This document shows, in pieces, positions 9,667-32,000 of a DNA stretch of 32,000 bases (the stretch's first letter is position 1; each line of letters begins with the position of its first letter). The position numbers were made by a program, and so were the translations under genes. Location: assembly GCA_965250005.1 (NCBI GenBank), contig OZ252279.1, positions 690,001 to 722,000 on the forward strand, given 5' to 3'. The DNA is from Demequinaceae bacterium (GTDB taxonomy: Bacteria > Actinomycetota > Actinomycetes > Actinomycetales > Demequinaceae). Under the pieces are notes generated by a model, which was not told the DNA's origin, ran no database searches, and saw only the letters and a list, made by a program, of their open reading frames with translations.

Positions 9667-9831
9667 GGTTCCGAGGCCCCTTTCAAACGTTGGATCGCAC
9701 AAAATGTGCGGTTGTCACCACAGTAGAGGCACCTGGGCGGCGTCGCAACGCACTTTATGCGGTAGGGGCTGGCGTGACATTCCGCCGTCTTGTCGCAAGA
9801 ATGGGTCGGTTGGCGGAACACCGCCGCACCT

Positions 9832-12585: not shown

Positions 12586-12601
12586 CCCCTCGTCGCGCGT
12601 A

Positions 12602-12641
12602 GCGAACTGGGGACCCACCGTGAGGCGGGTCCCCAGTTCGC
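12602..12641. terminator. bidirectional stem-loop between convergent aceE and the membrane-protein gene
   Basis: GCGAACTGGGGACCC (12602-12616), a 10-nt loop, then GGGTCCCCAGTTCGC (12627-12641). This is a perfect 15-bp stem. There is no long T tract. Confidence 0.55.
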
Positions 12642-12668
12642 TGCGCGACGCTGTTCGCGTCTCGCCAT

Positions 12669-13604: not shown

Positions 13605-13704
13605 GTTGAAGCTCCCTCCCATAAGGTGTTTCAACGCTAGTCATCCGGCGGCGACGCGGCTAGTGGTTTGTGGATTTCCCACAAGCGGCACCTATGCTGA
13701 TCAG

Positions 13705-14874
13705 ATGGCAACAGCAGACATGCGCACGGAAACGCTGCGGCGCCTCAAAAGCGGAACCGGCGTTCTGTCCACTGCAGCGATCAAGAGCCTCGACTCAGAC
13801 TTCATCTGGTTTCGCGAGTTGCCAGCGCGAGAGCGATCCTGGGTGGGAACGGTGGCCCAGGCCGGCATCAATGCGTTTGTCGAGTGGTACGCGAATCCGA
13901 AGGAAGTGGGCAGAGGCGCCAGTGAGGTGTTTGCCGCCGCACCGCCCGAACTCACCCGCTCGATCTCGCTCCAGCACACCCTGAGCATCGTCCGTACTGT
14001 TGTGAAAGTCGTCGAGGATCACTCCGACGACTTTGCTTCTCCGGGGACCGAAGCCCAGTTGAGGGAGGCAATCCTGCGCTATTCGCGCGAGATCGCATTC
14101 TCTGCCGCCGAGGTCTACGCGCGAGCCGCGGAGTCTCGCGGAGCCTGGGATGCGCGCCTTGAGGCTCTCGTGGTCGACGCCCTGGTTCGTGGCGAGATCA
14201 CGGACGATCTGCCATCTCGTGCGGCCGCTCTCGGGTGGAAACCGGGCCCAACCGTGGTGATGGTTGGCCTCACGGACGGCGCGCTTGGGGAAATCCAGTC
14301 AGCGGAATTGCGCCGGACCATTCGGCGGGTGGCTCGCGGGGCTCTTGTTGGAATACATGGCGAGGACCTTGTGGTGATCGCGCGCACCGACGCCGAACTC
14401 GATGAGATCACCGAATCGCTGCTGCCGTCGTTCGGCCCGGGGCCAGTGGTGATCGGTCCTCCGGCCGTGAGCCTGGTTGAGGTCGCCCACTCCACGCGTG
14501 CCGCCCTCGCTGGAGTGGTGGCCGCGCCCGCGTGGTCCCTCGCGCCGCGGCCCGCGAACGCGGATGACCTTCTGCCCGAGCGCGTCCTCGTGGGCGACGC
14601 GAGCGCTCGCGGCCGGTTGATCGATGTCGCATATGACCCCATCCTTCAGGCCGGTGGTTCACTCAAGGAGACCATCGGCACGTTCCTGGATTGCGGGCGG
14701 TCCCTGGAACTCGCCTCACGGACGATGTTCGTGCACGCCAATACCGTCCGGTATCGCCTAAAGAAGGTTAGCGACTTGACGGGCTGGGACGCCCTGAATA
14801 CGCGGGACGCACACGTGCTTTCCACGGCTTTTGCCCTGGGCCGCCTGCGCGACTCGAGCCACGCTCCGTTGTAG
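13705..14874 (+). CDS. fasR: PucR-family transcriptional regulator, FasR/MabR-type by position
   Basis: ORF 13246..14874 trimmed to ATG 13705, since the upstream part is antisense to the neighbouring gene. The C-terminal HTH is TMFVHANTVRYRLKKVSDLTG. It lies immediately upstream of fabD-fabH-acpP-fabF, matching SCO2386 and Rv2242. Confidence 0.82.
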   Translation: MATADMRTETLRRLKSGTGVLSTAAIKSLDSDFIWFRELPARERSWVGTVAQAGINAFVEWYANPKEVGRGASEVFAAAPPELTRSISLQHTLSIVRTVVKVVEDHSDDFASPGTEAQLREAILRYSREIAFSAAEVYARAAESRGAWDARLEALVVDALVRGEITDDLPSRAAALGWKPGPTVVMVGLTDGALGEIQSAELRRTIRRVARGALVGIHGEDLVVIARTDAELDEITESLLPSFGPGPVVIGPPAVSLVEVAHSTRAALAGVVAAPAWSLAPRPANADDLLPERVLVGDASARGRLIDVAYDPILQAGGSLKETIGTFLDCGRSLELASRTMFVHANTVRYRLKKVSDLTGWDALNTRDAHVLSTAFALGRLRDSSHAPL

Positions 14875-14885
14875 GAAACCTACAA
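14869..14885. promoter_or_regulatory. inverted repeat TTGTAGG-AAA-CCTACAA at the fasR stop / fabD upstream region (candidate operator)
   Basis: Read directly. It has 7-bp perfect arms and a 3-nt spacer. It overlaps the fasR TAG and lies 67 nt upstream of the fabD ATG. Its function is inferred only. Confidence 0.3.
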
Positions 14886-14951
14886 AACTTGGGGTAGACG
14901 TTAGCGTACGCGGCGTGAGCGATGCGGCCCAGTGTCATGCACGCTTGTTAC

Positions 14952-15866
14952 ATGCTTGCAGTCGTTTGCCCTGGACAGGGCGCACAAGCCCCCGGAATGC
15001 TCTCCTCCTGGCTCGAGATCCCTGAGATCGCCGAGCGCCTCGGAGCGCTATCCGAGGCGGCACACATTGACGTCGTCGCGCACGGAACCACGTCGGACGC
15101 CGATGCTATCCGCCACACGGCGATCGCGCAGCCCTTGCTGGTCGCCACGGCGATTGCCACGGGCCGCTCGCTCCTCGACGACACCGCGCCCGCGATTTCG
15201 GCGGGCCACTCCGTTGGAGAGCTGGGCGCGGCCGCACTGGCGGGCGTGATCAGCGACAGCGACGCCATGCTCCTAGTCTCCGTGCGGGCCAACGCCATGG
15301 CTTCGGCCGCCGCGTCGAGTGAGGCCACATCGATGGCCGCGGTACTTGGCGGCGACCCCGACCACGTGGCCACCGCGATCGCACTGCACGGCCTCACGCT
15401 CGCGAACGTGAATGGCGGTGGGCAAGTGGTCGCGGCGGGTGCCAAGGCCGCGATCGACGCGCTGGTTGACGCACCCCCCGAGAAGACGCGTGTCATCGAG
15501 CTGCAGGTCGCAGGAGCGTTCCACACGTCCTACATGGCATCTGCCGTTGACGCTCTAGGCGCTGCCGCGCGCGACATTGAGCGTCGTGATCCCCCGCGAG
15601 CGCTGCTGTCCAACGCCGATGGCACCCGCGTGATCGATGGCACGGACGCAATCGCGCGCATTGTGAATCAGGTCTCAAGCCCCGTGCGCTGGGACCTCTG
15701 CCAAGAAACAATGATCGACATGGGCGTCACCGCCCTGATTGAACTCGCGCCTGGCGGAGTACTCACCGGACTGGCCAAGCGCAGCATGAAGGGCATCCCA
15801 GCAGTTGCCCTCAAGTCGCCCGCGGATCTCGATGCCGCCCGAGAACTCCTGGAGCTCCACGCATGA
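14952..15866 (+). CDS. fabD: ACP S-malonyltransferase
   Basis: ORF 14922..15866 trimmed to ATG 14952. Product: MLAVVCPGQGAQ, GHSVGELGA (active-site GHSxG), VAGAFHTSYM. Confidence 0.9.
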   Translation: MLAVVCPGQGAQAPGMLSSWLEIPEIAERLGALSEAAHIDVVAHGTTSDADAIRHTAIAQPLLVATAIATGRSLLDDTAPAISAGHSVGELGAAALAGVISDSDAMLLVSVRANAMASAAASSEATSMAAVLGGDPDHVATAIALHGLTLANVNGGGQVVAAGAKAAIDALVDAPPEKTRVIELQVAGAFHTSYMASAVDALGAAARDIERRDPPRALLSNADGTRVIDGTDAIARIVNQVSSPVRWDLCQETMIDMGVTALIELAPGGVLTGLAKRSMKGIPAVALKSPADLDAARELLELHA

Positions 15867-16861
15867 CCACATTGAGCATCAACCGCGGGCCCGAGTTTTC
15901 GCGAATCCTCGGCCTAGGCGTCGCCCGCGGCGAGCAGGTCGTCCCCAACGAAGACATCGTCGGCCCGATCAACTCCTCTGACGAGTGGATCCGCCAACGC
16001 ACGGGCATCGCCACGCGCGTCCGCGCCAACGAAGATACATCGGTGCTGGACCTTGCCGAGCGGGCATCCGCGGACGCGATCGCGGCTTCCGGGATTTCCG
16101 CCGACGAGGTCGACACAGTCATTTTGTCGACCATCACGTACCCCCACCAGACACCGGGCGGCGCGCCCATCCTCGCGGATCGCCTCGGGGCAGCTGACGC
16201 AGCCGCATACGACATCTCGGCGGCGTGCGCAGGCTACTGCTACGCGATCGGCCAGGCGGACGCCCTGGTGCGCTCGGGCAACTCGCAAAACGTGCTCGTG
16301 GTTGGCGCCGAGAAGATGAGCGACTTCATTGATCCGACCGACCGCTCCATCTCGTTTCTTCTAGGTGACGCGGCGGGCGCCGTCCTAATTGGCGCCTCTG
16401 ACACGCCCGGCATCGGCCCGACGGTGTGGGGATCCGACGGCTCGCAGTCGCACACGATCACGCAGACCAACTCGTGGATCGAGGTGCGCGACTCAGACGT
16501 CCCCTTCCCTACCTTGCAGCAGGAGGGCCTCACCGTATTCAAGTGGGCTTCGTTCAAGATGGCACCTATCGCGATGCAAGCCCTTGAGTCCGCTGGCGTC
16601 ACCCCGGACGACATTCAGGCATTTATCCCCCACCAGGCCAACATGCGCATCATCGACCAGATGATCAAGCAAATCGGGCTGCCCGACACGGTTGCGGTCG
16701 GCCGCGACATCGCTGACTCCGGCAACACGTCGGCGGCGTCAATCCCGCTCGCGACGGAACGGATGGTGCGCGAGGGAGCAGCGAAGTCAGGCGACCTCGC
16801 CCTACAGATCGGGTTTGGCGCGGGCCTCGTGTATGCCGCCCAAGTCATCGTCCTTCCGTAA
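15863..16861 (+). CDS. fabH: beta-ketoacyl-ACP synthase III
   Basis: ATGA overlap with the fabD stop. Product: DISAACAGYCYA (active Cys), IPHQANMRII, GNTSAASIP, FGAGL. Confidence 0.9.
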   Translation: MTTLSINRGPEFSRILGLGVARGEQVVPNEDIVGPINSSDEWIRQRTGIATRVRANEDTSVLDLAERASADAIAASGISADEVDTVILSTITYPHQTPGGAPILADRLGAADAAAYDISAACAGYCYAIGQADALVRSGNSQNVLVVGAEKMSDFIDPTDRSISFLLGDAAGAVLIGASDTPGIGPTVWGSDGSQSHTITQTNSWIEVRDSDVPFPTLQQEGLTVFKWASFKMAPIAMQALESAGVTPDDIQAFIPHQANMRIIDQMIKQIGLPDTVAVGRDIADSGNTSAASIPLATERMVREGAAKSGDLALQIGFGAGLVYAAQVIVLP

Positions 16862-16922
16862 CCTATAAGTGTTCACATCAGAACTAGATGCTTAAGCATC
16901 ACCAACACAAGGAGAAAAACCC

Positions 16923-17171
16923 ATGGCTAAGTCCGAAAACGAGATCCTCGCGGGTCTCGCTGCAATTGTCGCTGAAGAGACCGGCCTCGACGCCGCGGAA
17001 GTGACGGGCGACAAGTCCTTCACCGACGACCTCGACATCGACTCGCTGTCCATGATGACTATCGTCACGCTCGCAGAAGAAGAGTTCGACGTGCGCATCC
17101 CCGACGAGGACGTGAAGAACCTCGTCACCGTCAACGACGCCGTTAAGTACATGACCGGCGCCCAGTCCTAA
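16923..17171 (+). CDS. acpP: acyl carrier protein
   Basis: 82 aa with AAGGAG upstream and DLDIDSLSMM (phosphopantetheine Ser). Confidence 0.92.
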   Translation: MAKSENEILAGLAAIVAEETGLDAAEVTGDKSFTDDLDIDSLSMMTIVTLAEEEFDVRIPDEDVKNLVTVNDAVKYMTGAQS

Positions 17172-17204
17172 CTTCGATCAACCCTTAACCCACACGGAGA
17201 ACAC

Positions 17205-18440
17205 ATGACGAACGTCGTTGTCACTGGTCTTGGAGCCACCACGCCAATAGGCGGGGATGTCGCCTCGACCTGGGAGGGAGCCCTTGCCGGGAAGTCCGGC
17301 GTACGCACCCTCGAGAACGACTGGGCAGAGAAGTACGAGATCCCGGTTGGCTTTGCTGGCCAGGCTGCCGTTCTACCCGAGGAGGTCCTCACGCGCCCGG
17401 AAACTAAGCGCATGGACCCGTCTGCTCAATTCGCGATTGTCGCGACCCGTGAGGCTTGGGCCGACGCCGGCTCGCCCGAGGTAGACCCCGAGCGCCTTGG
17501 CGCAGTGGTGTCCTCGGGCATCGGCGGTGTCTGGACCCTGCTCAACGCGTGGGACACCATCAGGGAAAAGGGAGCCAGGCGTGTCTTGCCCATGTCCGTG
17601 CCCATGCTCATGCCCAACTCCCCTGCCGCATACGTGGAGCTGGAGATTGGGGCAAAGGCCGGTGCGCACGCACCAGTCTCGGCCTGCGCGTCAGGCGCGG
17701 AGGCCATCGCCACCGGCTACCGAATGATCATGGACGGCCGCGCGGACATCGTGGTTGCTGGCGGTACTGAGGCGGCGACGCACCCGGTGTGCCTCGCCAC
17801 CTTCGCTGCCATGCACGCACTATCCACGCGAAATGACGACCCTGCGACCGCGTCGCGCCCGTACGACGTCACGCGCGACGGCTTTGTCATGGGCGAGGGC
17901 TCCGGAATTCTGGTGCTCGAGTCGGAGGAGCACGCCAAAGCTCGCGGCGCGCGCATCTACGCGACACTCAGCGGCGTAGGCCTCACCTCCGACGCGCACC
18001 ACATAGCGGCTCCCGAGCCGAACGGCGACGGCCAAACGCGCGCCATGAGATTCGCCATCGAAGACGCCGGAGTTACAACGCAGGACATCGACCACATCAA
18101 CGCGCACGCCACGTCGACGCCGCTGGGCGACATGATCGAGGCACGTGCGATCAGAGGACTGCTCGGCTCGCACGCCGACCAGGTGCTTTTGAGCGCGACC
18201 AAGTCCATGACCGGCCACCTCCTGGGCGGGGCCGGCGCGGTCGAGTCGGTGTTCGTAATCAAGGCGCTCACCGAGCGCCTCGCGCCTCCGACCATCAACG
18301 TCTCCGAGGTCGAGCCTGAGCTTGCGGTGGACCTGGTTCGTGACAAGCCGCGCGAGCTTCACGACGGCGACCTCACGGCAATCAACAACTCGTTCGGGTT
18401 TGGTGGCCACAACGTCGCGCTGGTCTTCACAAGCGTGTAG
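17205..18440 (+). CDS. fabF: beta-ketoacyl-ACP synthase II (KasA/FabF type)
   Basis: VVVTGLGATTPIG, PVSACASGAEAI (active Cys), NAHATSTPLGD, NSFGFGGHN. Confidence 0.9.
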   Translation: MTNVVVTGLGATTPIGGDVASTWEGALAGKSGVRTLENDWAEKYEIPVGFAGQAAVLPEEVLTRPETKRMDPSAQFAIVATREAWADAGSPEVDPERLGAVVSSGIGGVWTLLNAWDTIREKGARRVLPMSVPMLMPNSPAAYVELEIGAKAGAHAPVSACASGAEAIATGYRMIMDGRADIVVAGGTEAATHPVCLATFAAMHALSTRNDDPATASRPYDVTRDGFVMGEGSGILVLESEEHAKARGARIYATLSGVGLTSDAHHIAAPEPNGDGQTRAMRFAIEDAGVTTQDIDHINAHATSTPLGDMIEARAIRGLLGSHADQVLLSATKSMTGHLLGGAGAVESVFVIKALTERLAPPTINVSEVEPELAVDLVRDKPRELHDGDLTAINNSFGFGGHNVALVFTSV

Positions 18441-18561: not shown

Positions 18562-20379
18562 ATGCGCGCGCTCGGTGTCTCACCAGCCTGGATCGCGCAC
18601 GGCTCCGTCATCGCGCTGGCGGCGGCGTTGGTCGCCGCCGGCCTATTCGGATTGCAGTCGACAACCGCCGCCGCCACCCAACAAGAGATCGTCGATAGTG
18701 ACCTGTCGTCAGCCAAGCCCGACGACAAGAGTGGCAACAGCGGGGGTGGCGGCAAGGCCGAGGAGCCCCTCCCTGAGACGTGGACGTTCCGCGTGTTTAA
18801 CGCGAACGGCACTGACATCACCAGCAGCCCCATCCGGCCCGGGGAGACCGTGACAATTGTTGCCTCGGGCCTGCCTGCGGATCGTCGCGTCAACGTGGGC
18901 CTCTCGGTCAACCAACAGACGTTCGACGGCGGATTCATCGGAAGCGACGGTGTGTTGCGGCTATCCATCACCATCCCCGCAGGCGCCGTGGCAGGTCAGG
19001 ATTCGATCGTCGCGCGCATCACCGGCCAAGGGGGAGAGTCTTCGACGGCTACCGTTGGCATCACGATCGGTTCAGGATCGGGTTCTGAGTCCGAGTCCTC
19101 GGATGTGACGACGGAGGACGACACCTCCGCCGAGAATTCGCCGTCGGCGAGTGGAGCGACCGCCGGCATCTCCGACATCGGCGAAATCGACTCGCACAGC
19201 ACCAACACCGAGGCTGAATACGGTCACGGACTCCACGACGCAACCAAGTTTGGCGAAGGCTTGCATACGGCTGACGAACTCCACCTCGACGCCGAACACG
19301 TGGCCATCACCAGCGGGCTTGCGATCGTCATCCTGCTCATGATCGTGGTCCCCGGGCGGCTCCTAGAGGGAACGCTCACGCACAACTACGGCCGCATCCG
19401 GGCGTGGATAACGGATCTACGCGGTTGGATTCGGCGACACCGGCCACGCCTATCCGCCCGACTGACCGCGATCTCACTCGGCTCGAATCGCGGGCGCGCA
19501 TCGTTCAAGCTCGCGCGCGGACGGCTCACCGGCAAGTTCCCGTGGCTGACGAGCAGCTGGGCAGTCGTGCTCGGATCACTCGCGGCTACGGCATTTATCC
19601 TGGGCTTTTCTGACCCAGGTTTCGGCACCAATCCGTCGTCGTTCCGACTGTTCCTGGCCATCGGGCTATCGCTGGTGTTCATCAACCTTGCGGGCAACAT
19701 CGCGGTTCGGGTAGTTGCGAGTTACCGTTACAAGACCCCGGGTGTCTTTACCGCCATGCCCGCCGTCTTGATCATCACCGTTCTGGCGGTGGCCGTATCG
19801 CGCATCCTCCACATCCAACCGGGTCTGCTCCTCGGACTGGTGATCGGCGTATCGTTGGCGCGCGAACTCAGGCACACCGAGCACGCGCGGCTCGCGCTCT
19901 GGCACGCGGGCACTCTCTTCACCGCGGGCGTAGGCGCGTGGATCGCATACTCATTCGTCGCGGGCGGGCACGGCGACGAGGCTGGATTCTGGACGCACCT
20001 GGCGCAAGAGGTACTCGCCGCGACGGCGGTCGAGGCGCTCGTGGGATTCCTCGTCATCATGCTTCCGCTGGAATTCATGGAGGGGTTTGCCGTGTTCGCG
20101 TGGTCGCGCAAGATTTGGATCGCAGCCTACGCCGTCGGGCTCGTCACGTTCCTGACGCTCATAGCCCCCATGGCCGACGAGTTCCAGCACTGGACCGGAA
20201 ACGCGTACGTTCTGCTGACCGGAGTAGTCGTGTTCACGGCGTTCGCGCTAGGGGTCTGGTACTTCTTCCATCGAATTGAGCAGCGGGAACGCGCCGAGGC
20301 GATGGCCGCGGCTGCCGCAAGAAAGAAGCGCAAGGCGCCCCCCGCCAAGAAGAAGGCGACAGCCGCGGCCAGGAAGTAG
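18562..20379 (+). CDS. uncharacterised large membrane protein (signal/anchor, beta-rich ectodomain, acidic Ser/Gly/Glu linker, polytopic domain, basic tail)
   Basis: ATG 18562 with GAGGAGG upstream. N-terminal hydrophobic segment VIALAAALVAAGLFGL, then GSGSGSESESSDVTTEDDTS, at least 7 hydrophobic helices, and the C-terminus AAAARKKRKAPPAKKKATAAARK. Confidence 0.7.
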   Translation: MRALGVSPAWIAHGSVIALAAALVAAGLFGLQSTTAAATQQEIVDSDLSSAKPDDKSGNSGGGGKAEEPLPETWTFRVFNANGTDITSSPIRPGETVTIVASGLPADRRVNVGLSVNQQTFDGGFIGSDGVLRLSITIPAGAVAGQDSIVARITGQGGESSTATVGITIGSGSGSESESSDVTTEDDTSAENSPSASGATAGISDIGEIDSHSTNTEAEYGHGLHDATKFGEGLHTADELHLDAEHVAITSGLAIVILLMIVVPGRLLEGTLTHNYGRIRAWITDLRGWIRRHRPRLSARLTAISLGSNRGRASFKLARGRLTGKFPWLTSSWAVVLGSLAATAFILGFSDPGFGTNPSSFRLFLAIGLSLVFINLAGNIAVRVVASYRYKTPGVFTAMPAVLIITVLAVAVSRILHIQPGLLLGLVIGVSLARELRHTEHARLALWHAGTLFTAGVGAWIAYSFVAGGHGDEAGFWTHLAQEVLAATAVEALVGFLVIMLPLEFMEGFAVFAWSRKIWIAAYAVGLVTFLTLIAPMADEFQHWTGNAYVLLTGVVVFTAFALGVWYFFHRIEQRERAEAMAAAAARKKRKAPPAKKKATAAARK

Positions 20380-21517: not shown

Positions 21518-22015
21518 TCAACTGACGCGGTGCAGCCACCGCACGGGGGCTCCGTGGCCGGCGTACCGGAATGGCTCGAGCTCCTGGTCCCACGCGGTGC
21601 CAAGAGCGAGGTCCATGGCCCGCTTGAGGTCCGCGGCGTTGCCGCCGGTCTCGATCGCCGTGCGTATGCGGTCCTCCGGGACAACGATGTTGCCGTGAAC
21701 GTCCGTGACGGCGTGGAAGATGCCCAGCCCTGGCGTGTGGCTCCAGCGGCCTCCGTCGTTGCCGTACGACGGCTCTTCCGTGACCTCGTAGCGGACGTGC
21801 TCCCAGCCGCGTAGGGCGGACGCCAGGCGAGCGCCCGTCCCCTGGATGCCTTGCCATGACATTTCGGCGCGCAGAAGGCCAGGGCCGGCGGGCTGCTCGG
21901 TCCAGTCGAGGGTGGCGCGTGAGGTCAGCACGCTGCCTGCCGCCCACTCGATGTGGGGGCACATTGCACGCGTGGCAGAGTGCACGAACAACACGCCGCG
22001 GGTAATGGCAGCCAT
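21518..22015 (-). CDS. DUF3145 domain protein (conserved actinobacterial)
   Basis: ATG 22015 with GGAAGGA 6 nt upstream. Product: TRGVLFVHSATRAMCPHIEWAAGSVL...WTEQPA...LRGWEHVRYEVTEEPS...PGLGIFHA. Confidence 0.8.
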   Translation of the reverse strand: MAAITRGVLFVHSATRAMCPHIEWAAGSVLTSRATLDWTEQPAGPGLLRAEMSWQGIQGTGARLASALRGWEHVRYEVTEEPSYGNDGGRWSHTPGLGIFHAVTDVHGNIVVPEDRIRTAIETGGNAADLKRAMDLALGTAWDQELEPFRYAGHGAPVRWLHRVS

Positions 22016-22146
22016 CACCGTTCCTTCCTTCTAGGTGCGTCTTCCCCAACGACCTATCAGGAACTGCGTGATCTGCTACGTGCGTATGCGATTATCGTGC
22101 GACTCCATCGTGCCTTACCTCGGCGAATATTGCCAGCGCCGAGCGG

Positions 22147-22713
22147 TTACGTCGCGGGCGTGTCGGCGTGCACGTCGACGATTTCGGCTGCGTCTTCGTC
22201 GACATCGAGGACGGCCCAGTCGCGTTCAATCGCGGCGCGCATTTCTCGCATCGCCTGTCTCTTCACGTCGTTCTCGAGGCGATCGAGGAACAGCTTGCCG
22301 TCCAGGTGGTCCACCTCGTGCTGAATGAGGCGGGCCCAAATCTCACGGCCCTCGACCACGACTTCCGCGCCGTCAAGATCCGTGCCGACGGCGCGCGCGT
22401 GAACCGGGCGCTCGCACGGGTACCAGAGCCCTGGAACGCTCAGGCATCCCTCGTCGCTCAGTTCCTGGTTTTCAGAGGACATCTCCACGATCTCGGGGTT
22501 CAGGATGTAGCCGACCTCCCCTTCGATATTCCAGGAGAACGCGCGCAGGTTCACACCGATTTGGTTGGCCGCGAGCCCGGCGCGGCCGTCGCGATTGACA
22601 GTTTCCAGGAGGTCAGCGACCAGCGTACGCACGCCGTCATTGATCTGGGTGATCGGATCGCACGCAGTGCGTAGCACCGGGTCGCCCGTCACGCGGATGT
22701 CTCGCATAGCCAT
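22147..22713 (-). CDS. def: peptide deformylase
   Basis: ORF 22147..22929 trimmed to ATG 22713 ([15 protein letters not shown]). Product: [24 protein letters not shown] (the three def motifs). Confidence 0.9.
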
Positions 22714-22846
22714 GGCCAGTATTCTCCCACGCAGTGCGCGGGCCGCGCGAATCGCGTCGCAGCGGCACACGGTTGTGGAGCCCGAACGGCGGGCTCCTCG
22801 CGGCATGGCTCTGCCGTACCCGCCCGCGTTGTGACACGCTGGAGCC

Positions 22847-23707
22847 ATGACTGTCAGCCCCAAAATCAAGCCCGTAGACCACGCGGAGGTGGCGGCTCTG
22901 TGGCCAGTCGCCCAGCCCGCCGACCACAAGTACTCGCGAGGCGTGGTTGGCGTGATCGCCGGCTCAGACGCGTATCCGGGCGCCGCGGTGTTGGCGTGCT
23001 CGGGGGCTGTGCGCGCAGGGGCCGGGCTGGTCCGTCACGTAGGGCCGGACCGGGTCCAAGACTTAGTGCTTGGCGCGCGCCCCGAGGTGGTGCCGCACTC
23101 CCCTGGTGATGCTCTGCCCCGCGCCGACGCATGGGTGGTGGGCCCAGGGATCGGAGAGGACCCCCTCCAGGAGCGAGCCGCAGAGCTCGCGCGGCTCACG
23201 GACTCCCCGCGCGTCGTCGATGCCGCCCAAGTGATTCTGTTCGCGCTAGACCGTGCTGGGGCTGCGAAGGCCCCGGATCCCACGAACGTACTTTTCACCC
23301 CGCACGCCGGCGAACTAGCCGAAGCCCTCAACGCGCTCGGAGTCAAGATCGATCGCGCCGGTGTCGAGGCCGCGCGGCACAAATCTGCGACACGCCTGGC
23401 CGACCTCGCTCACGCAACAGTGCTGCTCAAGGGGCACCGGACGCTCGTGGTTTCGCCGGGCGGCCGAGCCTCGGAACTCCCGGCTGCGCCCGCCTGGCTA
23501 GCCACCGCCGGAACCGGCGACGTCCTGGCTGGAATTGCCGGAGCGCTGCTTGCCGCCGGCCTCGACGCGCGCGAGGCGGGCATTTCTGCTGCGCTCGTTC
23601 ATGGCCTGGCCGCTGAGCACGCGTCTGCTGGCGCGCCAATTGCTGCGCTAGATGTGGCTTCCGCCATTCCCTCAACCATCGGTCGGCTACTAGTGTCTCT
23701 GGCATGA
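22847..23707 (+). CDS. ADP/ATP-dependent NAD(P)H-hydrate dehydratase (YjeF C-terminal family)
   Basis: [60 protein letters not shown]. Confidence 0.85.
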
Positions 23708-24282
23708 CCTTGATCACGGAGCGCCTGCAGCTCCGGAAATTCGCCATCGCAGATGCCAGTGCGGTACACAGTTACGCCTCAGACCCTGAGGTGTGCGCGT
23801 TCATGAGTTGGGGTCCCAACACGTGGGACGAAACCCTCGACTTCCTGTCGCTCGCAACGTCCCACTCGGCCACGCGCCACGAGTTTGCGGTCATTGACCG
23901 CGCCACAGGAGACGTCATTGGCGCGGTGGGCGGCGGCCCCGTGGGTGAGGGCCGGTGGGATATGGGGTGGGTATTCAGCAAGGACGCATGGGGTCACGGC
24001 TACGCGACGGAGGCGGCGCGAGCCCTGGTGGGGTTCATCGCTACCCAGCCCGGTGTGGCGACAATCGAGGCACGCTGCGTGCCTGAGAACCGCGCGTCGG
24101 CGCGAGTCATGGAGAAGCTCGGGATGCACTATGTCAAGCGCATCGAGAACGACTTCGCGACGCGCGGGAACATGACCGACTCGCTGCTGTATTCGATCCC
24201 CACGCGCCGCATCGCTCGGCGCGACGTCGCGGCCGTCGCGGGCGCCGCGGGCGCCGCGGGCGCCGCGGGCGCAACAGGCTAA
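23704..24282 (+). CDS. GNAT family N-acetyltransferase (RimJ/RimL-like)
   Basis: ATGA overlap with the preceding stop. Product: LITERLQLRKF, WGHGYATEAARALV, VPENRASARVMEKLGM. The C-terminus is AGAAGAAGAAGATG. Confidence 0.8.
   Translation: MTLITERLQLRKFAIADASAVHSYASDPEVCAFMSWGPNTWDETLDFLSLATSHSATRHEFAVIDRATGDVIGAVGGGPVGEGRWDMGWVFSKDAWGHGYATEAARALVGFIATQPGVATIEARCVPENRASARVMEKLGMHYVKRIENDFATRGNMTDSLLYSIPTRRIARRDVAAVAGAAGAAGAAGATG
24241..24267. repeat. 9-bp tandem repeat (GGCGCCGCG)x3 at the 3' end of the GNAT gene
   Basis: Read directly. It is flanked by degenerate copies (gtcgcg before, ggcgcaaca after) and encodes (GAA)n. Confidence 0.85.
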
Positions 24283-24297
24283 CTCAAGCTCCCAGCA

Positions 24298-24317
24298 GCA
24301 CCGCACGTAGGCGGTGC
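24298..24317. terminator. short stem-loop between convergent GNAT and DUF1905 genes
   Basis: GCACCGC, loop ACGTAG, then GCGGTGC. The stem is 7 bp and there is no T tract. Confidence 0.3.
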
Positions 24318-24325
24318 AACGTCTG

Positions 24326-24598
24326 TCACTGGTCGCGCACCTCGAGCTCAAAGTCGATCAACCGCCCGAGTCCGAGTTCCTCAGCCTTGCGGACTTGCGC
24401 CTTCACCGGCAGCACGAACGACTCCGCCTCCTTGCTGGGAAAGACGGACGTGTCCCACGTGGTGTCACCCACCGTTACCCGTACGCGAATCGATCCGAAC
24501 CCGCGCTTGGGGCCGACGTAGCGAAAGTCGATCTCATCCGACGCCTCATGCGGGAGCGTCACGAAGTACCACGAAGCGTCCGACTTCCACAGATACAT
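24326..24598 (-). CDS. DUF1905 domain protein
   Basis: ORF 24326..24910 trimmed to ATG 24598, since the upstream part overlaps amt. Product: MYLWKSDASWYFVTLPHEASDEI...GSIRVRVTVGDTTWDTSVFPSKE...FVLPVKAQVRKA. Confidence 0.7.
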   Translation of the reverse strand: MYLWKSDASWYFVTLPHEASDEIDFRYVGPKRGFGSIRVRVTVGDTTWDTSVFPSKEAESFVLPVKAQVRKAEELGLGRLIDFELEVRDQ

Positions 24599-24632
24599 CT
24601 CTGCGCTGAACTTCAGAGACTGGGACAAGTCG

Positions 24633-25868
24633 CTAGTTGGTGATCTCGTACGCGCCCTCGCCGTGCTGACTGTAATCGAGTCCGTCGAATTCTTCCTTCT
24701 CCGTAACGCGCAGCCCGACGGTCTTCTTGACCAGCATGGCCAGCAGCCAACTCGCACCAAACGCGAATGCACTCGCGGCGACGATGGCGATGGCGTGCTT
24801 GCCCAGCAGCTCGGCGCCTCCGCCATTGAAGATTGCGATGCCAGCGCCGCCGTCGGCGAGCAGGTCGCGCGCGAAGAATCCGAGGAAGAGCATCCCGACC
24901 ACGCCGCCAATGTAGTGAACGGCGAGGACGTCGAGCGAGTCGTCGATCTTCACACGGAACTTAAGCTTGACCGCCCACAGGCAGACTGCGCCGGCGATGA
25001 GGCCGAGCAGCAGCGCTGGCAGCGGGTCGAGGAATCCTGCCGAGGGCGTAATCGCCACGAGTCCAGCCACAACGCCCGATGCGCCACCAAGGGCGGTGGG
25101 TTTGCCCACGAGCTTCTTTTCGAGCGCAAGCCAGCCGATCATGCCGCCAACGCCAGACATGTGCGTGGCAAGCGCGGCTGCGCCAGCGTCGGCGCCGGAG
25201 GTAAGCGCGGAACCGGCGTTGAAGCCGATCCATCCGACCCACAGCAGGCCAGCACCTAGGAGAGTCAGCGGGAGGTTATGGGGAAGCATCGGCTTGCCCG
25301 GCCAGCCCTTGCGGCGTCCCACGACAATCGCGAGCGCGAGCGCAGAGGCTCCCGAACAGATCTCTACCACCGTTCCACCGGCGAAGTCCTTCACTCCAAG
25401 GGCGGCCATCCAGCCGTCGCTTGACCAAGCCCAGTGCGCGATGAGCGGATACACGGCGATGGACCAGAGCGCAATGAAGCCCATGAGCGGCAGGAAGCGG
25501 GTGCGATCCGCGGCGGCGCCAGTGATGAGCGCCCCGGTGATGACTGCGAACATCATTTGGAACATGACGAACACGTCCGGCGGGAAGGTGAAGTCCACGG
25601 CGCCCGGTTCGCGGATTCCGTCGAGCCCGATGAAGTCGAGGCCTCCGACCAGGCCTGCCCCGGCGTCGGCGCCCCAAAACAGCGAGAAGCCCACGAGCAC
25701 CCAGGTCACGGAGACGACCGCCAGCGCGCCAAAGTTGTACATGAGCATGCCGAGCGCGTTCTTGGCGCGCACCATGCCGGCGTAGAAGATCGCGAGGCCG
25801 GGGAGCATGAGGAGCACGAGGACGGTGCTGGTGATGAGCCACGCGGTGTCGCCGGTGTCGAATTCCAC
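24633..25868 (-). CDS. amt: ammonium transporter
   Basis: GTG 25868 with AAGGAG upstream. Product: DTAWLITSTVLVLLMLPGLAIFYAGMVR, DFAGGTVVEI, AVHYIGGVVG. About 11 TM helices. Confidence 0.9.
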   Translation of the reverse strand: MEFDTGDTAWLITSTVLVLLMLPGLAIFYAGMVRAKNALGMLMYNFGALAVVSVTWVLVGFSLFWGADAGAGLVGGLDFIGLDGIREPGAVDFTFPPDVFVMFQMMFAVITGALITGAAADRTRFLPLMGFIALWSIAVYPLIAHWAWSSDGWMAALGVKDFAGGTVVEICSGASALALAIVVGRRKGWPGKPMLPHNLPLTLLGAGLLWVGWIGFNAGSALTSGADAGAAALATHMSGVGGMIGWLALEKKLVGKPTALGGASGVVAGLVAITPSAGFLDPLPALLLGLIAGAVCLWAVKLKFRVKIDDSLDVLAVHYIGGVVGMLFLGFFARDLLADGGAGIAIFNGGGAELLGKHAIAIVAASAFAFGASWLLAMLVKKTVGLRVTEKEEFDGLDYSQHGEGAYEITN

Positions 25869-25972
25869 GGTGATTCTCCTTCGTTGATTCGGCCTACGCG
25901 GCCGCGCTCTGCCAGATCCCTACGGGCGAGTTCCCCCGAGTGTAGCGACCGTACGGACGGTAATCACGCTGG

Positions 25973-26302
25973 CTACTCGGCGGGATCAGGCTCGTGCGCC
26001 ACAGACCCGGCGGCGCCGAGCGCCCACCCAACCGTCGATGTCACCATTCGGCCCGCGAAGCGCACCGCAGTCCGCTCCGACACAGGTCGGTGTGGCAGTC
26101 CGAGTTCAGCCTGCGTCCATTCGGGCATCAATGCGACGCCGGCGGCCGCCAGCGCCCGGTACGGCGGCCTGGCGAACCATGGCAACGGCGGGTGGTCGAG
26201 GAGAAACCGTGCGGTCTCGCGCGCGGCGTCGGTTGCGCGGAGCTCCGGACGGTAGGCCTCGATGGCGTCGTCCAGTTCCCTCCTGGTGGTGGGAAGGCTC
26301 TC
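25973..26302 (-). pseudogene. 3' fragment of an MpaB/DUF2236-family oxygenase gene, 5' part removed at the IS-A boundary
   Basis: The frame of ORF 25973..26185 stays open up to the IS end at 26302. It reads ESLPTTRRELDDAIEAYRPELRATDAARETARFLLDHPPLPWFARPPYRALAAAGVALMPEWTQAELGLP, which resembles the C-terminal third of DUF2236 proteins. There is no start codon or N-terminal part. Confidence 0.6.
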
Positions 26303-26317
26303 TGAATCGCCCCGGGT

Positions 26318-26799
26318 TTAGTGGAGGGCGGGTTCTCCCAGGAGCGGTTGCTCGTGGGGTGTGTTCTCACGGTAGTACAGGTGGAGCCGACCCACAGCTC
26401 ATTGGGACATTCGGCACGGAAGTTGCGCTTCACGTGATCCGGTGCTCGGTTTGCTGCCGGATCGGGACGGGTCGTGACGAACTGTTTGCCGCGACGCACC
26501 CCGCGAAGCCCCTGAGCCCGCATGAGACGCTCCACCGTGCAGCGGGCGGTCACGACACCGTCACGCTTGAGTAGGCGCCACACCTTTCGCGCACCCGAGA
26601 TCCCGCGACCCTTCGTGCGGTCCCAGAAGACCCGCTCAATGTGTTCGCGCAACTCTTGATCACGCACCGTCCGCTGCGAGATGGCACGCGTTTTGAACGC
26701 GTAGTAAGTAGACGGGGCGATCTTGACTCCGTGCTCGGTGAGCACCCGGCAGATCGGCTCGACCCCGAAACGAACACGATGCTCGTCGATGAAGTTCAC
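26318..26799 (-). pseudogene. IS-A transposase orfB remnant (DDE core deleted)
   Basis: (GTG)NFIDEHRVRFGVEPICRVL...RNFRAECPNELWVG matches IS-B orfB up to ...RRLWVA. At about 26383-26388 it jumps out of frame to the terminal YYRENTP...H* segment. The listed ORF 26128..26799 is a read-through artefact. Confidence 0.8.
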
Positions 26800-27127
26800 T
26801 AAAACGGAAGTCGCGGGTCGAGCTCCCGCGCGAAGAAACTTGACGCCGCAAACAAAATATCGTTGGCACGCTTCAACTCACGATTCTCACGCTCGAGATC
26901 TTTGATACGGGCCGCGCCGACCGTGGCGATGCCCCTGACCTCGCCGGCGCCAATGCGCGCCTGTTTCACCCACCCACGCAACCTGTCCGGAATCACCCCC
27001 GTGCGATGACCGATACGGATCACCACCGCAATCAACGACAACGACACCTCCTGGCTCATCGCCTCACTTACGAACCGAATGGCCCGATCTGATTTGGCCT
27101 GGGTTTTGTTCCGACTTTTCAGTAAGG

Positions 27128-27448
27128 ATGGAACCCATGACTAGATACACACCGCAGATGCGTGAGCGGGCGTTGAGAATGCTTGCTGAGGCGAGGCCGG
27201 ATCACCCGAGTTTGATGACTGCGATCCGTCACGTGGCAGGCTTGCTTGGGATGAGCCCGGAGACGCTTCGCGTGTGGCAACGCCGCTACGAGGTCGATGC
27301 CGGGCAACGCCCGGGGGCGACTAGCGACATAGTTGAGGACAACCGGCGTTTGAAGCGCGAGAACGCGGAGTTGCGCAAAGCGAATGAGGTCCTTCGGGCT
27401 GCGAGCGTGTTTTTTGCGAAGGAGCTCGACCAGCCACGGACGAGATGA
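27128..27448 (+). CDS. IS3-family transposase orfA (HTH + leucine zipper)
   Basis: RERALRMLAEAR...IRHVAGLLGMSPETLRVWQRRYE...NRRLKRENAELRKANEVLRAASVFFAKELD. It contains GTG TTT TTT GCG (T6 at 27410-27415). From there the -1 frame is open into orfB. Confidence 0.88.
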   Translation: MEPMTRYTPQMRERALRMLAEARPDHPSLMTAIRHVAGLLGMSPETLRVWQRRYEVDAGQRPGATSDIVEDNRRLKRENAELRKANEVLRAASVFFAKELDQPRTR

Positions 27449-28371
27449 CCCGCTTCATTGACGAGCACAAGGGTCGTTTCGGGGTTGAGCTCATCTGCCG
27501 GGTGTTACGCGTGGCGGTTCGTGGATTTGTCACCTCGCGCGGTTATCGCGCCGCTAAGACGCGTCCACCGTCCGTGCGTGCCCTGCGTGATGGTCTGCTT
27601 GTGCCCGAGGTGGTCCGGTTGCATGCAGAGAACTACGGCGTGTACGGGAGGCGGAAAATGCATGCGCTGCTGAAGCGGCAAGGCTGGCAGGTTGGGCGGG
27701 ACCAGACCGAGCGACTCATGCGCCTGGCAGGTGTTCGGGGTGTGAAACGCTCGAAGAAAGTGTTTACGACCAAGAGTGATCCTGCTGCCGCCAAGCCGCA
27801 GGATCTTGTGCAACGCCGGTTCACTGCACCAGCACCGCGCCGTTTGTGGGTCGCGGACATCACCTACGTCGCGACCTGGTCCGGTTTCGCTTACGTCGCG
27901 TTCGTCACCGACGTCTACTCACGCAGGATCGTCGGATGGAACGTCGCATCGACCCTGCAGGCTGACATCCTGCCTTTGCGGGCGCTCGACATGGCCGCCT
28001 GGGACGCGGCAGGCGACCTCGCTGGCCTCGTCCATCATGCCGACCACGGCTCAAACTATTTGGCTACGGTCTACACCGACCGCGTCATCGAGCTCGGTGC
28101 GAAACCTTCCACCGGCTCGGTCGGCGACTCATATGACAATGCCCTCGCCGAGGCCATCAACGGCCTCTACAAAACAGAACTCATCCGCCAGCAAGGGCCC
28201 TGGCGCACCGTCGAACAAGTCGAGTTCGCGACCCTCGAATACGTGTGGTGGTGGAACAACAAACGACTCCACGGCGAACTCGACATGCACACCCCCGTCG
28301 AGATCGAACAGGCGTACTACGCTGGCCAAGAATCAACCCAACCGGCATCCGCCGGACAGGGAAACACCTAG
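27445..28371 (+). CDS. IS3-family transposase orfB (DDE integrase core)
   Basis: ATGA overlap with the orfA stop. Product: RLWVADITYV, VHHADHGSNY, YDNALAEAINGLYKTELI. Confidence 0.92.
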   Translation: MTRFIDEHKGRFGVELICRVLRVAVRGFVTSRGYRAAKTRPPSVRALRDGLLVPEVVRLHAENYGVYGRRKMHALLKRQGWQVGRDQTERLMRLAGVRGVKRSKKVFTTKSDPAAAKPQDLVQRRFTAPAPRRLWVADITYVATWSGFAYVAFVTDVYSRRIVGWNVASTLQADILPLRALDMAAWDAAGDLAGLVHHADHGSNYLATVYTDRVIELGAKPSTGSVGDSYDNALAEAINGLYKTELIRQQGPWRTVEQVEFATLEYVWWWNNKRLHGELDMHTPVEIEQAYYAGQESTQPASAGQGNT

Positions 28372-28613
28372 GAACTAAACCCAGGCCAAATCAATCCCGC
28401 AACTCCTGCGGATACTTCCTCGATGCTGGCATGACTCCCATCCTTTCGGGAAATCAGACCCTCCACCAAACCCGAGGCGATTCAGTTGGCTCCATGTTCC
28501 TACGTAGCGGGGCTTACACACTTGCCTGCAGGCGTGCGCGATTCGTTCGCGATCGCGACTGAATCCACCGAACCACCAGCCATAGCCGTCGCCCCTTGTG
28601 CAGAAATGGGTAA

Positions 28614-28633
28614 CGGGCCCCCGAAGGGGCCCG
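28614..28633. other. GC-rich hairpin CGGGCCCC-CGAA-GGGGCCCG in the cas9 upstream leader
   Basis: Read directly. It has a perfect 8-bp stem and a 4-nt loop. It is followed by CCTCATTTGG on the + strand and by TTACCCATTTCTGC on the - strand. Confidence 0.5.
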
Positions 28634-28783
28634 CCTCATTTGGTGCAGTCCTGTCTAACAACAGTTCTACTTGTTAGCGTCAGGGCGCATTTCCCAGAAC
28701 GATAGTTGTTTCGCCAACATAACATGTGTCAGACATCCAGGCTACGGTCGAGTAGATCCACAAGAGTTCTGAAAGGGACTGAC

Positions 28784-28835
28784 ATGACCGTACAAGCAAA
28801 TGCACCCCTCAAGTACCGGCTTGGGCTGGATGTTG
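28784..28835 (+). pseudogene. cas9: cas9 5' fragment (codons 1-17 plus one base)
   Basis: ATG 28784 after GAAAGGGA. Product: MTVQANAPLKYRLGLDV(G), the start of the RuvC-I motif. It is cut by IS-C at 28836. Confidence 0.85.
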
Positions 28836-28868
28836 GGGGCTGGTGCAGGAACTGGTGACAGTTCGGGT

Positions 28869-29744
28869 TTAGGCCGCGAGGGCCATTTGTGTGTTCATGA
28901 TGGTCTCGTATTCGATGGGGGTCAAGCGTCCGAGTCGGTCTTGTCGGCGGCGGCGGTGGTAGGTGCGTTCGATCCAGGTGATGATCGCGATGCGGAGTTC
29001 CTGGCGGGTGTCCCAGCGTTGCCGGTTCAGGACGTTTTTTTGGAGCAGGCTGAAGAAGGATTCCATTGCGGCGTTGTCGCCGGCGGCACCTACTCGACCC
29101 ATGGAGCCGACCATGCCGTGACGGTTCAGTGCGTGACCCATTTTGCGGGAACGAAATTGAGATCCCCTATCGGCGTGCAGGATGCATCCAGTGACGTCGC
29201 CGCGGGACGCGACGGCGTTGGCCAGGGCGTTCACAGCCAACTGGGCTTGCATTCGGTCACTGAGTGAGTAGCCGACGATGCGGTTCGAGTACAGGTCCTT
29301 GATGGCGCACAGGTAGAGTTTGCCTTCACTGGTGGGGTGCTCCGTGATGTCCGTCAGCCACACCTGATTTGGGCTCTGGGCGGTGAAGACACGTTGCACG
29401 AGGTCATCGAACACGGGTGGACCGGGTTTGCCTGCCTTGCCTCTCTTGCGACGCTGTGTCGTTGACACCAAACCCGCCTGCGACGCCAAGGACCATGCGG
29501 TCCTGCGCACCATCGGCCATCCGGCTACCACGGCCTCGTCCGCGAGGAACCGGTAGCCGAACTCTGGGTCGTCACGGTGCGCGTCAATGAGCGCGTTCAT
29601 GCGATGCGCTTGCACCCAGTCCAATGCCGTAACTGGTTCGCTTCGCCACCGGTAGTACGGCTGGCGAGCAATCTTCAGCACCCGACACGTCACCGCGACG
29701 GGAACACCGTCGACGGCCAGCTCGCGGACGAGCGGGTAGATCAT
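28869..29744 (-). CDS. IS3-family transposase orfB (DDE)
   Basis: VWLTDITEH, ILHADRGSQF, AGDNAAMESFFSLLQKNVL. Confidence 0.9.
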   Translation of the reverse strand: MIYPLVRELAVDGVPVAVTCRVLKIARQPYYRWRSEPVTALDWVQAHRMNALIDAHRDDPEFGYRFLADEAVVAGWPMVRRTAWSLASQAGLVSTTQRRKRGKAGKPGPPVFDDLVQRVFTAQSPNQVWLTDITEHPTSEGKLYLCAIKDLYSNRIVGYSLSDRMQAQLAVNALANAVASRGDVTGCILHADRGSQFRSRKMGHALNRHGMVGSMGRVGAAGDNAAMESFFSLLQKNVLNRQRWDTRQELRIAIITWIERTYHRRRRQDRLGRLTPIEYETIMNTQMALAA

Positions 29745-30040
29745 TTTGGGTGGCCACCGAGTTTGAGATTGGCCTGCGACAAGTAAGCGGCCGCACGCCG
29801 CAAAACCTCGTTCTCTTGCTCGAGCAACCGATTACGCCGACGCAACTCCCGCACCTGTTCGGCTCGCTCACGGCTCACACCAGGTTTGTCACCGTCCTCG
29901 ATGTTGGCTTGACGCAACCAATTCGACAACGTCGCATGCGAGATCCCGAAATCCTCGGCAATCTGCTTCTGAGACGCCTCACGGCGCCGGGCAACCGCAA
30001 CCACGTCACGGCGAAACTCCTCAGGAAAAACTTTAGGCAT
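29741..30040 (-). CDS. IS3-family transposase orfA
   Basis: ORF 29741..30091 trimmed to ATG 30040, with GGAAGGA upstream. Product: MPKVFPEEFRRDVVAVARRREASQKQIAEDFGISHATLSNWLRQ...RRNRLLEQENEVLRRAAAYLSQ. Confidence 0.85.
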   Translation of the reverse strand: MPKVFPEEFRRDVVAVARRREASQKQIAEDFGISHATLSNWLRQANIEDGDKPGVSRERAEQVRELRRRNRLLEQENEVLRRAAAYLSQANLKLGGHPK

Positions 30041-30112
30041 AACAACATCCTTCCACCAAGACCCTCCCAGGTCCCAGAAGTCAGTTGTCACCTATCCCTG
30101 CACCAGCCCCTT

Positions 30113-32000
30113 GGGACTGGATCCCTGGGGTGGGCCGTTCTCGCTTTGGATGAGGACGGCAAGCCGTTTCGCATTGAGCGCATGGGCTCGCGGATATTTG
30201 GCACCGGGCGCAAACCGAAGGACAACACGTCGCTTGCGGCGGATCGCACGCAGGCTCGGTCGATGCGCAGGCGCCGCGATCGCTATTTGCGCCGCCGAAA
30301 TATGACGATCAACCAGCTCGTCGCGGCTGGTCTCATGCCTGAAGACAAAGCAGCTCGCAAAAAGTTGGTTTCGCTTCACCCCTTCCGGCTACGTTCTGAA
30401 GGTCTGCACAGAGAGCTAACGTTGCATGAGCTGGGCCGGGCGCTCTTCCACTTGCAGCAACGTCGGGGGTTCAAAAGCAACCGCAAGGCGGACAAGGGTG
30501 ACAGCGATTCGGGAGCCATGAAGACGGCAATTCTGGACACTCAGTCCCGAATTCCTACTGGGGAGACAGTGGGCTCTTATCTTTGGGCACAGATTCTGGA
30601 GGGCGAGAGCGCGCGTGCGAGGCGGCGCGGCGAAGGAGCAAAGGCCACCTATGACTTCTACGTGAACCGCCAGATGGTTCAAGAAGAGTTCGACGCATTG
30701 TGGGAGTCTCAGAGACGGTTTCACCCCGAAGAGCTCGACCAAGAAGCGTATGACGCAGTCCACTCCGCCATCTTCTTTCAGCGGGCCCTCAAGCGGGTCC
30801 AGGTGGGCAAGTGCTTCTTCGAGCGTGAAGAGGAACGGGCGGCCGATGCGTTGCCGTCATCGCAACTGTTCCGGCTGTATCAGGAGGTCAACAACCTCAT
30901 GGTCCGCGATCACGATGACGCAACACTGCGCCTTCGACCTCTCACGCGAAACGAGAGGGATAGGGCCATCGAGTACCTCGGCGCGATCAAGGATTCCACC
31001 TTTGCGAAACTCGGCGAGAAGCTCTTCGGCAGGGCGTCTCGGTTTGAATTCAATCTTCAGGCGGGTGAACGCTCCAAGATCAAGGGAAACGACGTCGCCA
31101 GCACTCTCAAGGGGAAGAAGGCATTCGGGCCTTCCTGGTTCACCCTCCCCTTGGATCAGCAAGATGAAATCGCTCAAAGAATTGAAGACGTGGAGTCTGA
31201 AGCGGACGAGGAGGGCCTGGCGTTCTGGCTCCGCGAAGCCCACGGACTATCCCCCGACAACGCGCATCACGTCGCCACCAAAGTGAACTTGCCCGACGGC
31301 CACCGCCGCCTGAGTTCAAAGGCGATCGGCAAAATACTCCCGCACCTCAGTGACGGTTGGGATGAGGAGCATGGTCGCGCGCTCCGGTACAGCGACGCGG
31401 TGGAGCAGGTTGACGAGCCAAACTACCGGAGCCACAGCGAGCAGCACACCGGGGACCTCTTTGAGCATCTCCCCTACTACGGGAAGATTCTCCACCGGTA
31501 CACCGCAGACGTACCACGGCGTGAAGATGAGGCCGTACAGAAAAACACCGACGCGAACGAGTGGGAGTACGGACGCATCGCGAACACCACGGTCCACATC
31601 GGCCTGAACCAGATCCGCAAGGTGGTCAATGCCCTCATCAACGCGTACGGCCTCCCGGCCGAGGTCCACGTTGAAGTAGCCCGCCACCTGGGACAGAGCC
31701 GCGAAGCGCGCATCGAAGACTCAAAGCGGAGGCGCGAAGGGGAGGAGAACAACGAACGGATCCGCGAGATTCTTGAGGATCTGGGAGTCAAGGACAATTA
31801 TGACAACCGCACGCGCGTGAAGTTGTTTGAGGAGCTTGCACCGCTTAGCCACCGGTGCATATTCACTGGCATCCCAATAGCGCGTGCGCGCATGTTCACC
31901 AACGACTACCAGGTGGATCACGTGTTGCCGTATTCGCGGACTCTGGACGACAGTTACGGCAACAAGATCTTGATTCACCACACCGCGAATCAGTTCAAGG
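30113..32000 (+). pseudogene. cas9: cas9 3' part (about 629 codons, continues past the window edge); type II, II-C-like architecture
   Basis: Missing from the ORF track because it has no stop in the window. Hand translation: GTGSLGWAVLALDEDGKPFRIERMGSRIFGTG, RTQARSMRRRRDRYLRRRN (Arg-rich bridge helix), HELGRALFHLQQRRGFKSNRK, IANTTVHIGLNQIRKVVNALINAYGLPAEVHVEVARHL (RuvC-II) and YQVDHVLPYSRTLDDSYGNKILI (HNH; D-H at 31916-31921, N-K at 31961-31966). Confidence 0.88.

Follow-up and report, generated by a model that had tools for sequence, protein, structure and literature searches.

An IS3-family element in codon 18 of cas9 in a probable type II-C CRISPR locus of a Demequina-like actinobacterium

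Insertion sequence (IS) elements that land in cas genes, whether in nature or in experimental traps, and including an IS3 insertion into SpCas9, are a documented route by which CRISPR systems are inactivated; in its genome screen the same study accepted an element only if it agreed to 100% with an ISfinder entry (Sheng et al. 2023, Nat Commun 14:4366, PMC10359306). For the type II-C locus of Flavobacterium psychrophilum CN46 an IS982 element lying upstream of cas9 was proposed to drive the gene, on the basis of a bioinformatic promoter motif and of RNA-seq data showing that cas9 is transcribed (PMC10309648). Here we describe a 32,000-nucleotide stretch of contig OZ252279.1 of a Demequinaceae bacterium, referred to as the window, in which a cas9 gene is cut near its start by an IS3-family element that we call IS-C (Table 1). 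It is very probable that we are looking at a chromosomal type II-C locus of a Demequina-like actinobacterium, in which cas9 was knocked out by an intact IS3-family element inserted into codon 18, and the insertion is most likely a recent loss-of-function event. The phenomenon as such is documented, and the present instance of it, though new, is an ordinary example of a known route of CRISPR loss, to which it adds an actinobacterial II-C case; the earlier genome screen, with the exact ISfinder match that it demanded, would probably not have picked it up.

The 5' stub of cas9 opens with an ATG at 28784, encodes MTVQANAPLKYRLGLDV, closes with GATGTTG and then continues into GGGGCTGGTGCAGG. The break point is one base into codon 18 (Asp16-Val17-G/GG), leaving both Asp16 and Val17 on the stub. 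A first-pass annotation of this DNA had described cas9 as cut here by an IS3-family element, and the sequence at those positions agrees; it had put the break two codons after the RuvC-I Asp, of which the site stands, and the distance has to be corrected to one codon and one base past Asp16. IS-C and one TTG together make 1278 bp, a multiple of three. When they are removed, 28784-28835 joins 30114-32000 to give 646 amino acids, which read ...KYRLGLDVGTGSLGWAVLALDEDGK..., the frame of 30101/30116 being free of stops up to 32000. The same removal had been predicted to restore the RuvC-I motif, and it does: the join reads KYRLGLDVGTGSLGWAV, the same peptide as in Demequina Cas9, and YRLGLDVGTGSLGWAV of the restored protein is identical in the Cas9 of Demequina sediminicola (P0017). 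With IS-C in place, the frame of the stub meets a stop at 28856-58 and yields a product of 24 residues, MTVQANAPLKYRLGLDVGGWCRNW, so read-through of the element from the stub is not possible. With 1275 bp of IS between its two parts, cas9 is thus not an uninterrupted translatable gene but a pseudogene by disruption.

The terminal inverted repeats of IS-C, as returned by the repeat finder, are 25 nt long and 88% complementary. The target duplication is TTG or, if the inverted repeats are taken to be shorter, TTGGG, which puts its length at 3 to 5 bp; the restored sequence is the same on every reading. Over its whole length (1-1275) IS-C aligns at about 70% DNA identity with annotated IS3 elements on plasmids of Mycobacterium, Nocardioides, Rhodococcus and Streptomyces, and this end-to-end match is independent evidence that a mobile unit begins and ends at these borders. 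The ends read GGGGCTGG...CCAGCCCC, i.e. GG...CC and not TG...CA; TG...CA termini are common, not universal, in the IS3 family. The stop codon of orfA overlaps the ATG of orfB (ATGA), and in the overlap of the two genes there is a canonical slippery heptamer in the orfA frame, C CCA AAA (X XXY YYZ), at 29750-29744; from the heptamer and the overlap we predict that IS-C carries a -1 frameshift signal. Judged by its sequence, IS-C is complete, with orfA and orfB intact. No further copy was found in the window, and the three IS elements of the window differ from one another.

In six related loci the DNA is unbroken at the exact insertion point (GAT/GAC-GTx-GGx-ACx). Inspection of related genomes at this site was among the checks that the first-pass annotation had asked for, and the uninterrupted site in the relatives, like the match of the 1275-bp unit to annotated IS3 elements, came out in its favour. 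Because of the inverted repeats, the duplication, the end-to-end IS homology and the unbroken relatives with the same peptide, there is little room for reading 28836-30113 as anything other than an insertion. An assembly artefact was considered and ruled out: a mis-join would not give exact inverted-repeat borders and a duplication, nor would a conserved motif be restored perfectly on removal of the insert.

The perfect open reading frame (ORF) that is regained on removing the IS and one TTG, and the apparently active state of IS-C, would also suit a reversible switch, in which precise excision of the element restores cas9 in a subpopulation and makes CRISPR immunity phase-variable. IS3-family elements, however, transpose by copy-out/paste-in (IS911/IS3), and the donor copy stays where it was; precise excision between 3-bp repeats is rare and host-mediated, and the sequence gives no hint of a dedicated excision mechanism. 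A switch of this kind seems to us very unlikely, and we prefer to see the insertion as plain inactivation.

That the rejoined protein is a Cas9, as had been claimed, could be established with profile searches. The 646-residue fragment matches TIGR01865 (Cas9) over profile positions 1-624 of 1070 with 409 bits (cutoff 100), with further matches to HNH_4 and Cas9_a in Pfam. The part of the gene past the window could be followed in P0001, a public gene call on the same contig of 2,000,753 bp, which is 1058 amino acids long and 100% identical to cas9 over the shared part. P0001 adds a further 370 residues (Cas9 647-1016) up to the natural C-terminus, which ends ...DPLGNILDPGFHG and lines up with the ends of P0002 and P0017, the nearest relatives; the stop codon of cas9 is expected near 33.1 kb. 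The full Cas9 rebuilt in this way has 1016 amino acids, reaches 579.5 bits on TIGR01865 (same cutoff) and is matched by the PADLOC Cas9 models at 4.8e-88. Located by motif position and by aligning the protein with a solved Cas9 chain, the catalytic residues D16, E538, H620, N634, H757 and D760 are all kept, the RuvC-III residues His757/Asp760 being in the part known from P0001. Neither a stop nor a frameshift occurs in the remaining 999 codons; for those beyond the window this follows from P0001, which is evidently the public call of the same locus. The earlier statement that the rest of the gene is undisrupted can in this way be extended to the C-terminus. The protein search gave 2654 significant matches, and among the best 120, which were listed, there was no second cas9 from the same contig. 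The GC content of cas9 is 58-60% (30000-32000), that of the neighbouring chromosomal genes 62-71% (22000-26500); the lower value is in keeping with a CRISPR locus that was acquired horizontally.

It must be added that P0001 is a chimeric call, for which 'disrupted cas9' would be the right annotation. It starts at an ATG at 29937 inside IS-C (MRDPEILG...), antisense to orfA, and then runs into GTGSLGWAV..., fusing 59 IS-derived residues in frame to Cas9 residues 18-1016. One could imagine that this start, together with transcription out of IS-C, gives a new 1058-residue protein, a Cas9 without Asp16 in which the 59 stand in place of residues 1-17. Such a RuvC-dead Cas9 might load the duplex of trans-activating CRISPR RNA (tracrRNA) and CRISPR RNA (crRNA), and serve as a natural nickase, or bind or regulate under RNA guidance, e.g. 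as a transcriptional repressor. In favour of it, the ORF is there and in the right frame, no damage is seen in the HNH and RuvC-II/III residues, the bridge helix or the tracrRNA, and the IS982 element proposed to drive cas9 in F. psychrophilum offers a precedent (PMC10309648). Against this, the start codon lies antisense within a transposase gene, and the sole promoter-like match in 28380-30300 is on the opposite strand. Moreover, what is replaced is the first beta-strand, central to the RNase-H fold, and the substitute, LSLHQPL, has a Pro and no acidic residue; with this core strand swapped, misfolding would be likely, as far as can be deduced from the established Cas9 structures. Gene callers, too, routinely extend ORFs like P0001 in GC-rich DNA. 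Both the protein and the route leading to it are therefore, in our opinion, highly improbable; if true, they would represent an IS-generated 'dCas9-like' domestication.

Upstream of cas9 the first-pass annotation had seen no gene, and in this respect it was mistaken: a tracrRNA gene, divergent from cas9 and conserved in relatives, was found there. From its sequence we identify 28710-28601 of the minus strand as the tracrRNA of this cas9. In the direction of the minus strand it comprises an anti-repeat (28708-28673), AAG, a two-tier stem-loop and a terminator hairpin, GGGCCCC-UUCG-GGGGCCC. It is kept at the same place and in the same orientation upstream of cas9 in the related loci L002-L008 (seven fetched, six distinct). 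The stems, which were judged from per-sequence folds as the MAFFT/RNAalifold alignment misplaced the inner stem, show compensatory changes: GUAG/CUGC vs GGAG/CUCC, and CUGG/CCAG vs CUGU/ACAG vs CCUG/CAGG. The 36-nt repeats that lie downstream of cas2 in L002 and L004 are similar, when reverse-complemented, to the segment 28680-28710. The locus' own array would lie outside the window, and the anti-repeat was paired with the repeats of these two relatives, giving -52 and -46 kcal/mol; the relatives' anti-repeats with their own array repeats gave -57 and -63 kcal/mol, and shuffles -16 +/- 3.6. The search for an Rfam family for the tracrRNA gave no match at the gathering threshold nor at E<=1. As far as its sequence allows one to judge, the tracrRNA is apparently intact.

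The compact N-terminal region had led to the guess that the system is of type II-C, and we arrive at the same assignment by other, indirect support: the best solved relatives of the Cas9, the layouts of six related loci and the Cas1 on the same contig. The top matches in the PDB, including 9ar4/8jtj/8uza and 6jdq/6kc8, which we take to be GeoCas9 and Nme Cas9 (II-C), have E values of 6.5e-68 to 1e-54, the chains named here lying at 6.5e-68 to about 1e-62, in two local stretches. The next match is labelled Streptococcus thermophilus 1 Cas9 (II-A), at 1e-30, followed by 5axw and related entries, presumably SauCas9 (II-A), at about 1e-29, and by 4cmp, presumably SpCas9 (II-A), at 6e-11. By these comparisons the protein groups with II-C rather than with II-A or II-B Cas9. 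The related loci (six distinct, L003 being a duplicate of L002) have the order tracrRNA (minus strand), cas9, cas1, cas2, and contain neither csn2 nor cas4. Three of them were scanned for CRISPR arrays, which were seen in L002 and L004 and not found in L003; the repeats are 36 nt long. The window contains no CRISPR array. Cas1 of the same contig (P0260, 307 amino acids, called on a contig of the same 2,000,753 bp) was matched over the full length of the query, is 76% identical to the Cas1 of L002 and is typed Cas1_II. The locus' own repeat is likely to be about 36 nt long and to resemble GTTGCGGCCAGGGCTCATTTCCCAGAGCGATAGACT on the minus strand. Among the related loci, in the closest ones (L002 15575-16272, L005 9340-10041), the array is immediately followed by a gene for a PIN-domain toxin with a small partner ORF upstream of it, and then by dnaG.

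The surroundings of the locus suggest a further explanation, an old CRISPR locus decaying in an IS-ridden region, where the insertion in cas9 would be one lesion of many and not the inactivating event. A span of 4 kb does contain three IS3-family elements: one of them, IS-B, sits inside another, IS-A, which it splits, and IS-A is degraded, its orfB ending at about residue 138. An ALIL frameshift pseudoknot (RF01497) at 26713-26840 on the minus strand belongs to IS-A. No target duplication was seen at the ends of IS-A, one of which is about 115 bp beyond the tracrRNA terminator. The locus itself, however, does not look decayed: the other 999 codons of cas9 are free of stops and frameshifts, the catalytic residues are all kept, the structure of the tracrRNA is apparently intact, Cas1 is full-length, and IS-C is undamaged with a perfect duplication. 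We consider long-standing decay a very improbable account. We think of a single, recent hit because IS-C is undamaged and its duplication perfect, the 3-kb remainder of the gene is open, the tracrRNA is apparently intact and Cas1 is full-length. We also considered the possibility that IS elements deleted neighbouring genes, and dropped it, as the region upstream of cas9 shows no convincing synteny with that of L002, L004 or L005, except for the tracrRNA.

In an inactivation by insertion, the locus would have the order tracrRNA (minus strand), cas9, and then cas1, cas2 and array, presumably past the window. The cas9 promoter and ribosome-binding site would now drive only the 24-residue peptide, and the 999 codons behind IS-C would have lost their start signals as well as the first RuvC beta-strand with Asp16. 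Absence of Cas9 would mean no interference and no crRNA maturation with the tracrRNA, and the expression of cas1 and cas2 would probably be lowered through polarity. It is possible that the insertion was selected for relieving a cost, for example that of self-targeting or of not being able to take up plasmids or prophages.

Several points weigh against this interpretation. We found no empty-site allele or sister strain, and the nearest Cas9 among the matches listed is only 58% identical, so the unbroken ancestral state had to be deduced from distant relatives. The loss of immunity is what we infer from the broken gene. 'Recent' is likewise a deduction, the intact frame setting only a loose upper limit on the age of the insertion. 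The locus, whose cas2 and array presumably lie outside the window, may have been defunct already before the insertion. Finally, a truncated or chimeric Cas9 product could conceivably be made from the P0001 frame. If the inactivation is accepted, the locus is a clean natural example of an IS switching off Cas9 in the presence of an apparently intact tracrRNA, rest of cas9 and Cas1, and its reconstruction yields a previously uncharacterised Cas9 of 1016 amino acids, its tracrRNA and its likely repeat.

Table 1. Positions of the cas9 parts, IS elements, RNAs and chromosomal genes in the 32,000-nucleotide window
Feature	Position	Strand	Remarks
cas9 5' stub	28784-28835	+	codons 1-17 (MTVQANAPLKYRLGLDV) and first base of codon 18; bears RuvC-I catalytic Asp16
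cas9 3' part	30114-32000	+	codons 18-646 of 1016, runs past window end; bridge helix, RuvC-II Glu538, HNH His620/Asn634
IS-C, IS3-family element	28836-30110	-	1275 bp; inverted repeats 28836-28860 and 30086-30110; transposase antisense to cas9
IS-C orfA	29741-30091	-	116 aa, helix-turn-helix; PF01527 HTH_Tnp_1; NF033516 profile positions 1-86
IS-C orfB	28869-29744	-	291 aa, DDE/rve; PF00665 at 5.8e-22; NF033516 251.3 bits, cutoff 160
TTG target-site duplication, left copy	28833-28835		read from sequence
TTG target-site duplication, right copy	30111-30113		read from sequence
Predicted tracrRNA	28601-28710, ends approximate	-	conserved position, anti-repeat pairing, folds; divergent from cas9
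IS-B, second IS3-family element	27090-28393	+	1304 bp, TG...CA ends, 23-nt inverted repeats, ATC duplication; inserted in IS-A orfA
IS-A, third IS3-family element, remnant	26302-28485 (26302-27089 and 28394-28485)	-	38-nt inverted repeats, 82% complementary; tblastn and NF033516 matches
RNase P RNA, class A	3696-4058	-	320 bits
tRNA	9115-9188	-	ordinary actinobacterial chromosome
aceE / PucR-type regulator / fabD / fabH / fabF block	9790-18440	+	ordinary actinobacterial chromosome
605-aa ORF	18562-20379	+	no Pfam match at 1e-5; singleton cluster in protein collection, from the same contig
Ammonium transporter gene	24633-25868	-	TIGR00836, 418 bits; last ordinary gene before IS cluster

Outside the CRISPR locus and the IS cluster the window carries the genes listed in Table 1. 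The host is called Demequina-like on account of its AceE, which has 82-84% identity to that of Demequina species. An amt gene also lies about 5.5 kb upstream of cas9 in L002, where tblastx gave no convincing synteny with the window. Short perfect tandem repeats occur at 5236-5272 (GTCCAC, 6.2 copies) and at 24228-24272 (CGCGGGCGC, 5 copies).

It is instructive to compare the locus with known systems. IS-C resembles IS3-family elements of the IS911/IS3/IS150 type in its size of 1.2-1.3 kb, its overlapping ORFs with the -1 heptamer, its DDE (rve) domain, its terminal inverted repeats and its 3-bp duplication, and differs from them in the GG...CC termini, whereas the adjoining IS-B has the usual TG...CA. 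The Cas9 is similar to Nme1/Nme2Cas9 of Neisseria meningitidis and to GeoCas9 of Geobacillus in its compactness (1016 amino acids) and in having RuvC-I/II/III and HNH, and the loci of its relatives share with these systems the order cas9-cas1-cas2-array and the 36-nt repeats. The relatives' repeat starts with GUUG... on the strand opposite to cas9, and the Nme repeat likewise begins with GUUG... on that strand. In sequence, on the other hand, the protein is only distantly similar to the solved II-C enzymes, and the tracrRNA lies upstream of cas9 and divergent from it. As in F. psychrophilum CN46, where IS982 and IS256 are found, several IS elements accompany a II-C locus, both beside the tracrRNA and in the locus itself; there, however, they are located between tracrRNA and cas9 and inside the array, and cas9 is intact, whereas here the element is inside cas9 (PMC10309648). 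Compared with the cases of Sheng et al., the present one, which is known from sequence alone, concerns a II-C cas9, a Demequina-like actinobacterium and an uncharacterised member of the IS3 family, and it has in common with them an IS that lies in the coding sequence of the effector nuclease, is flanked by target duplications and would disable immunity (PMC10359306).

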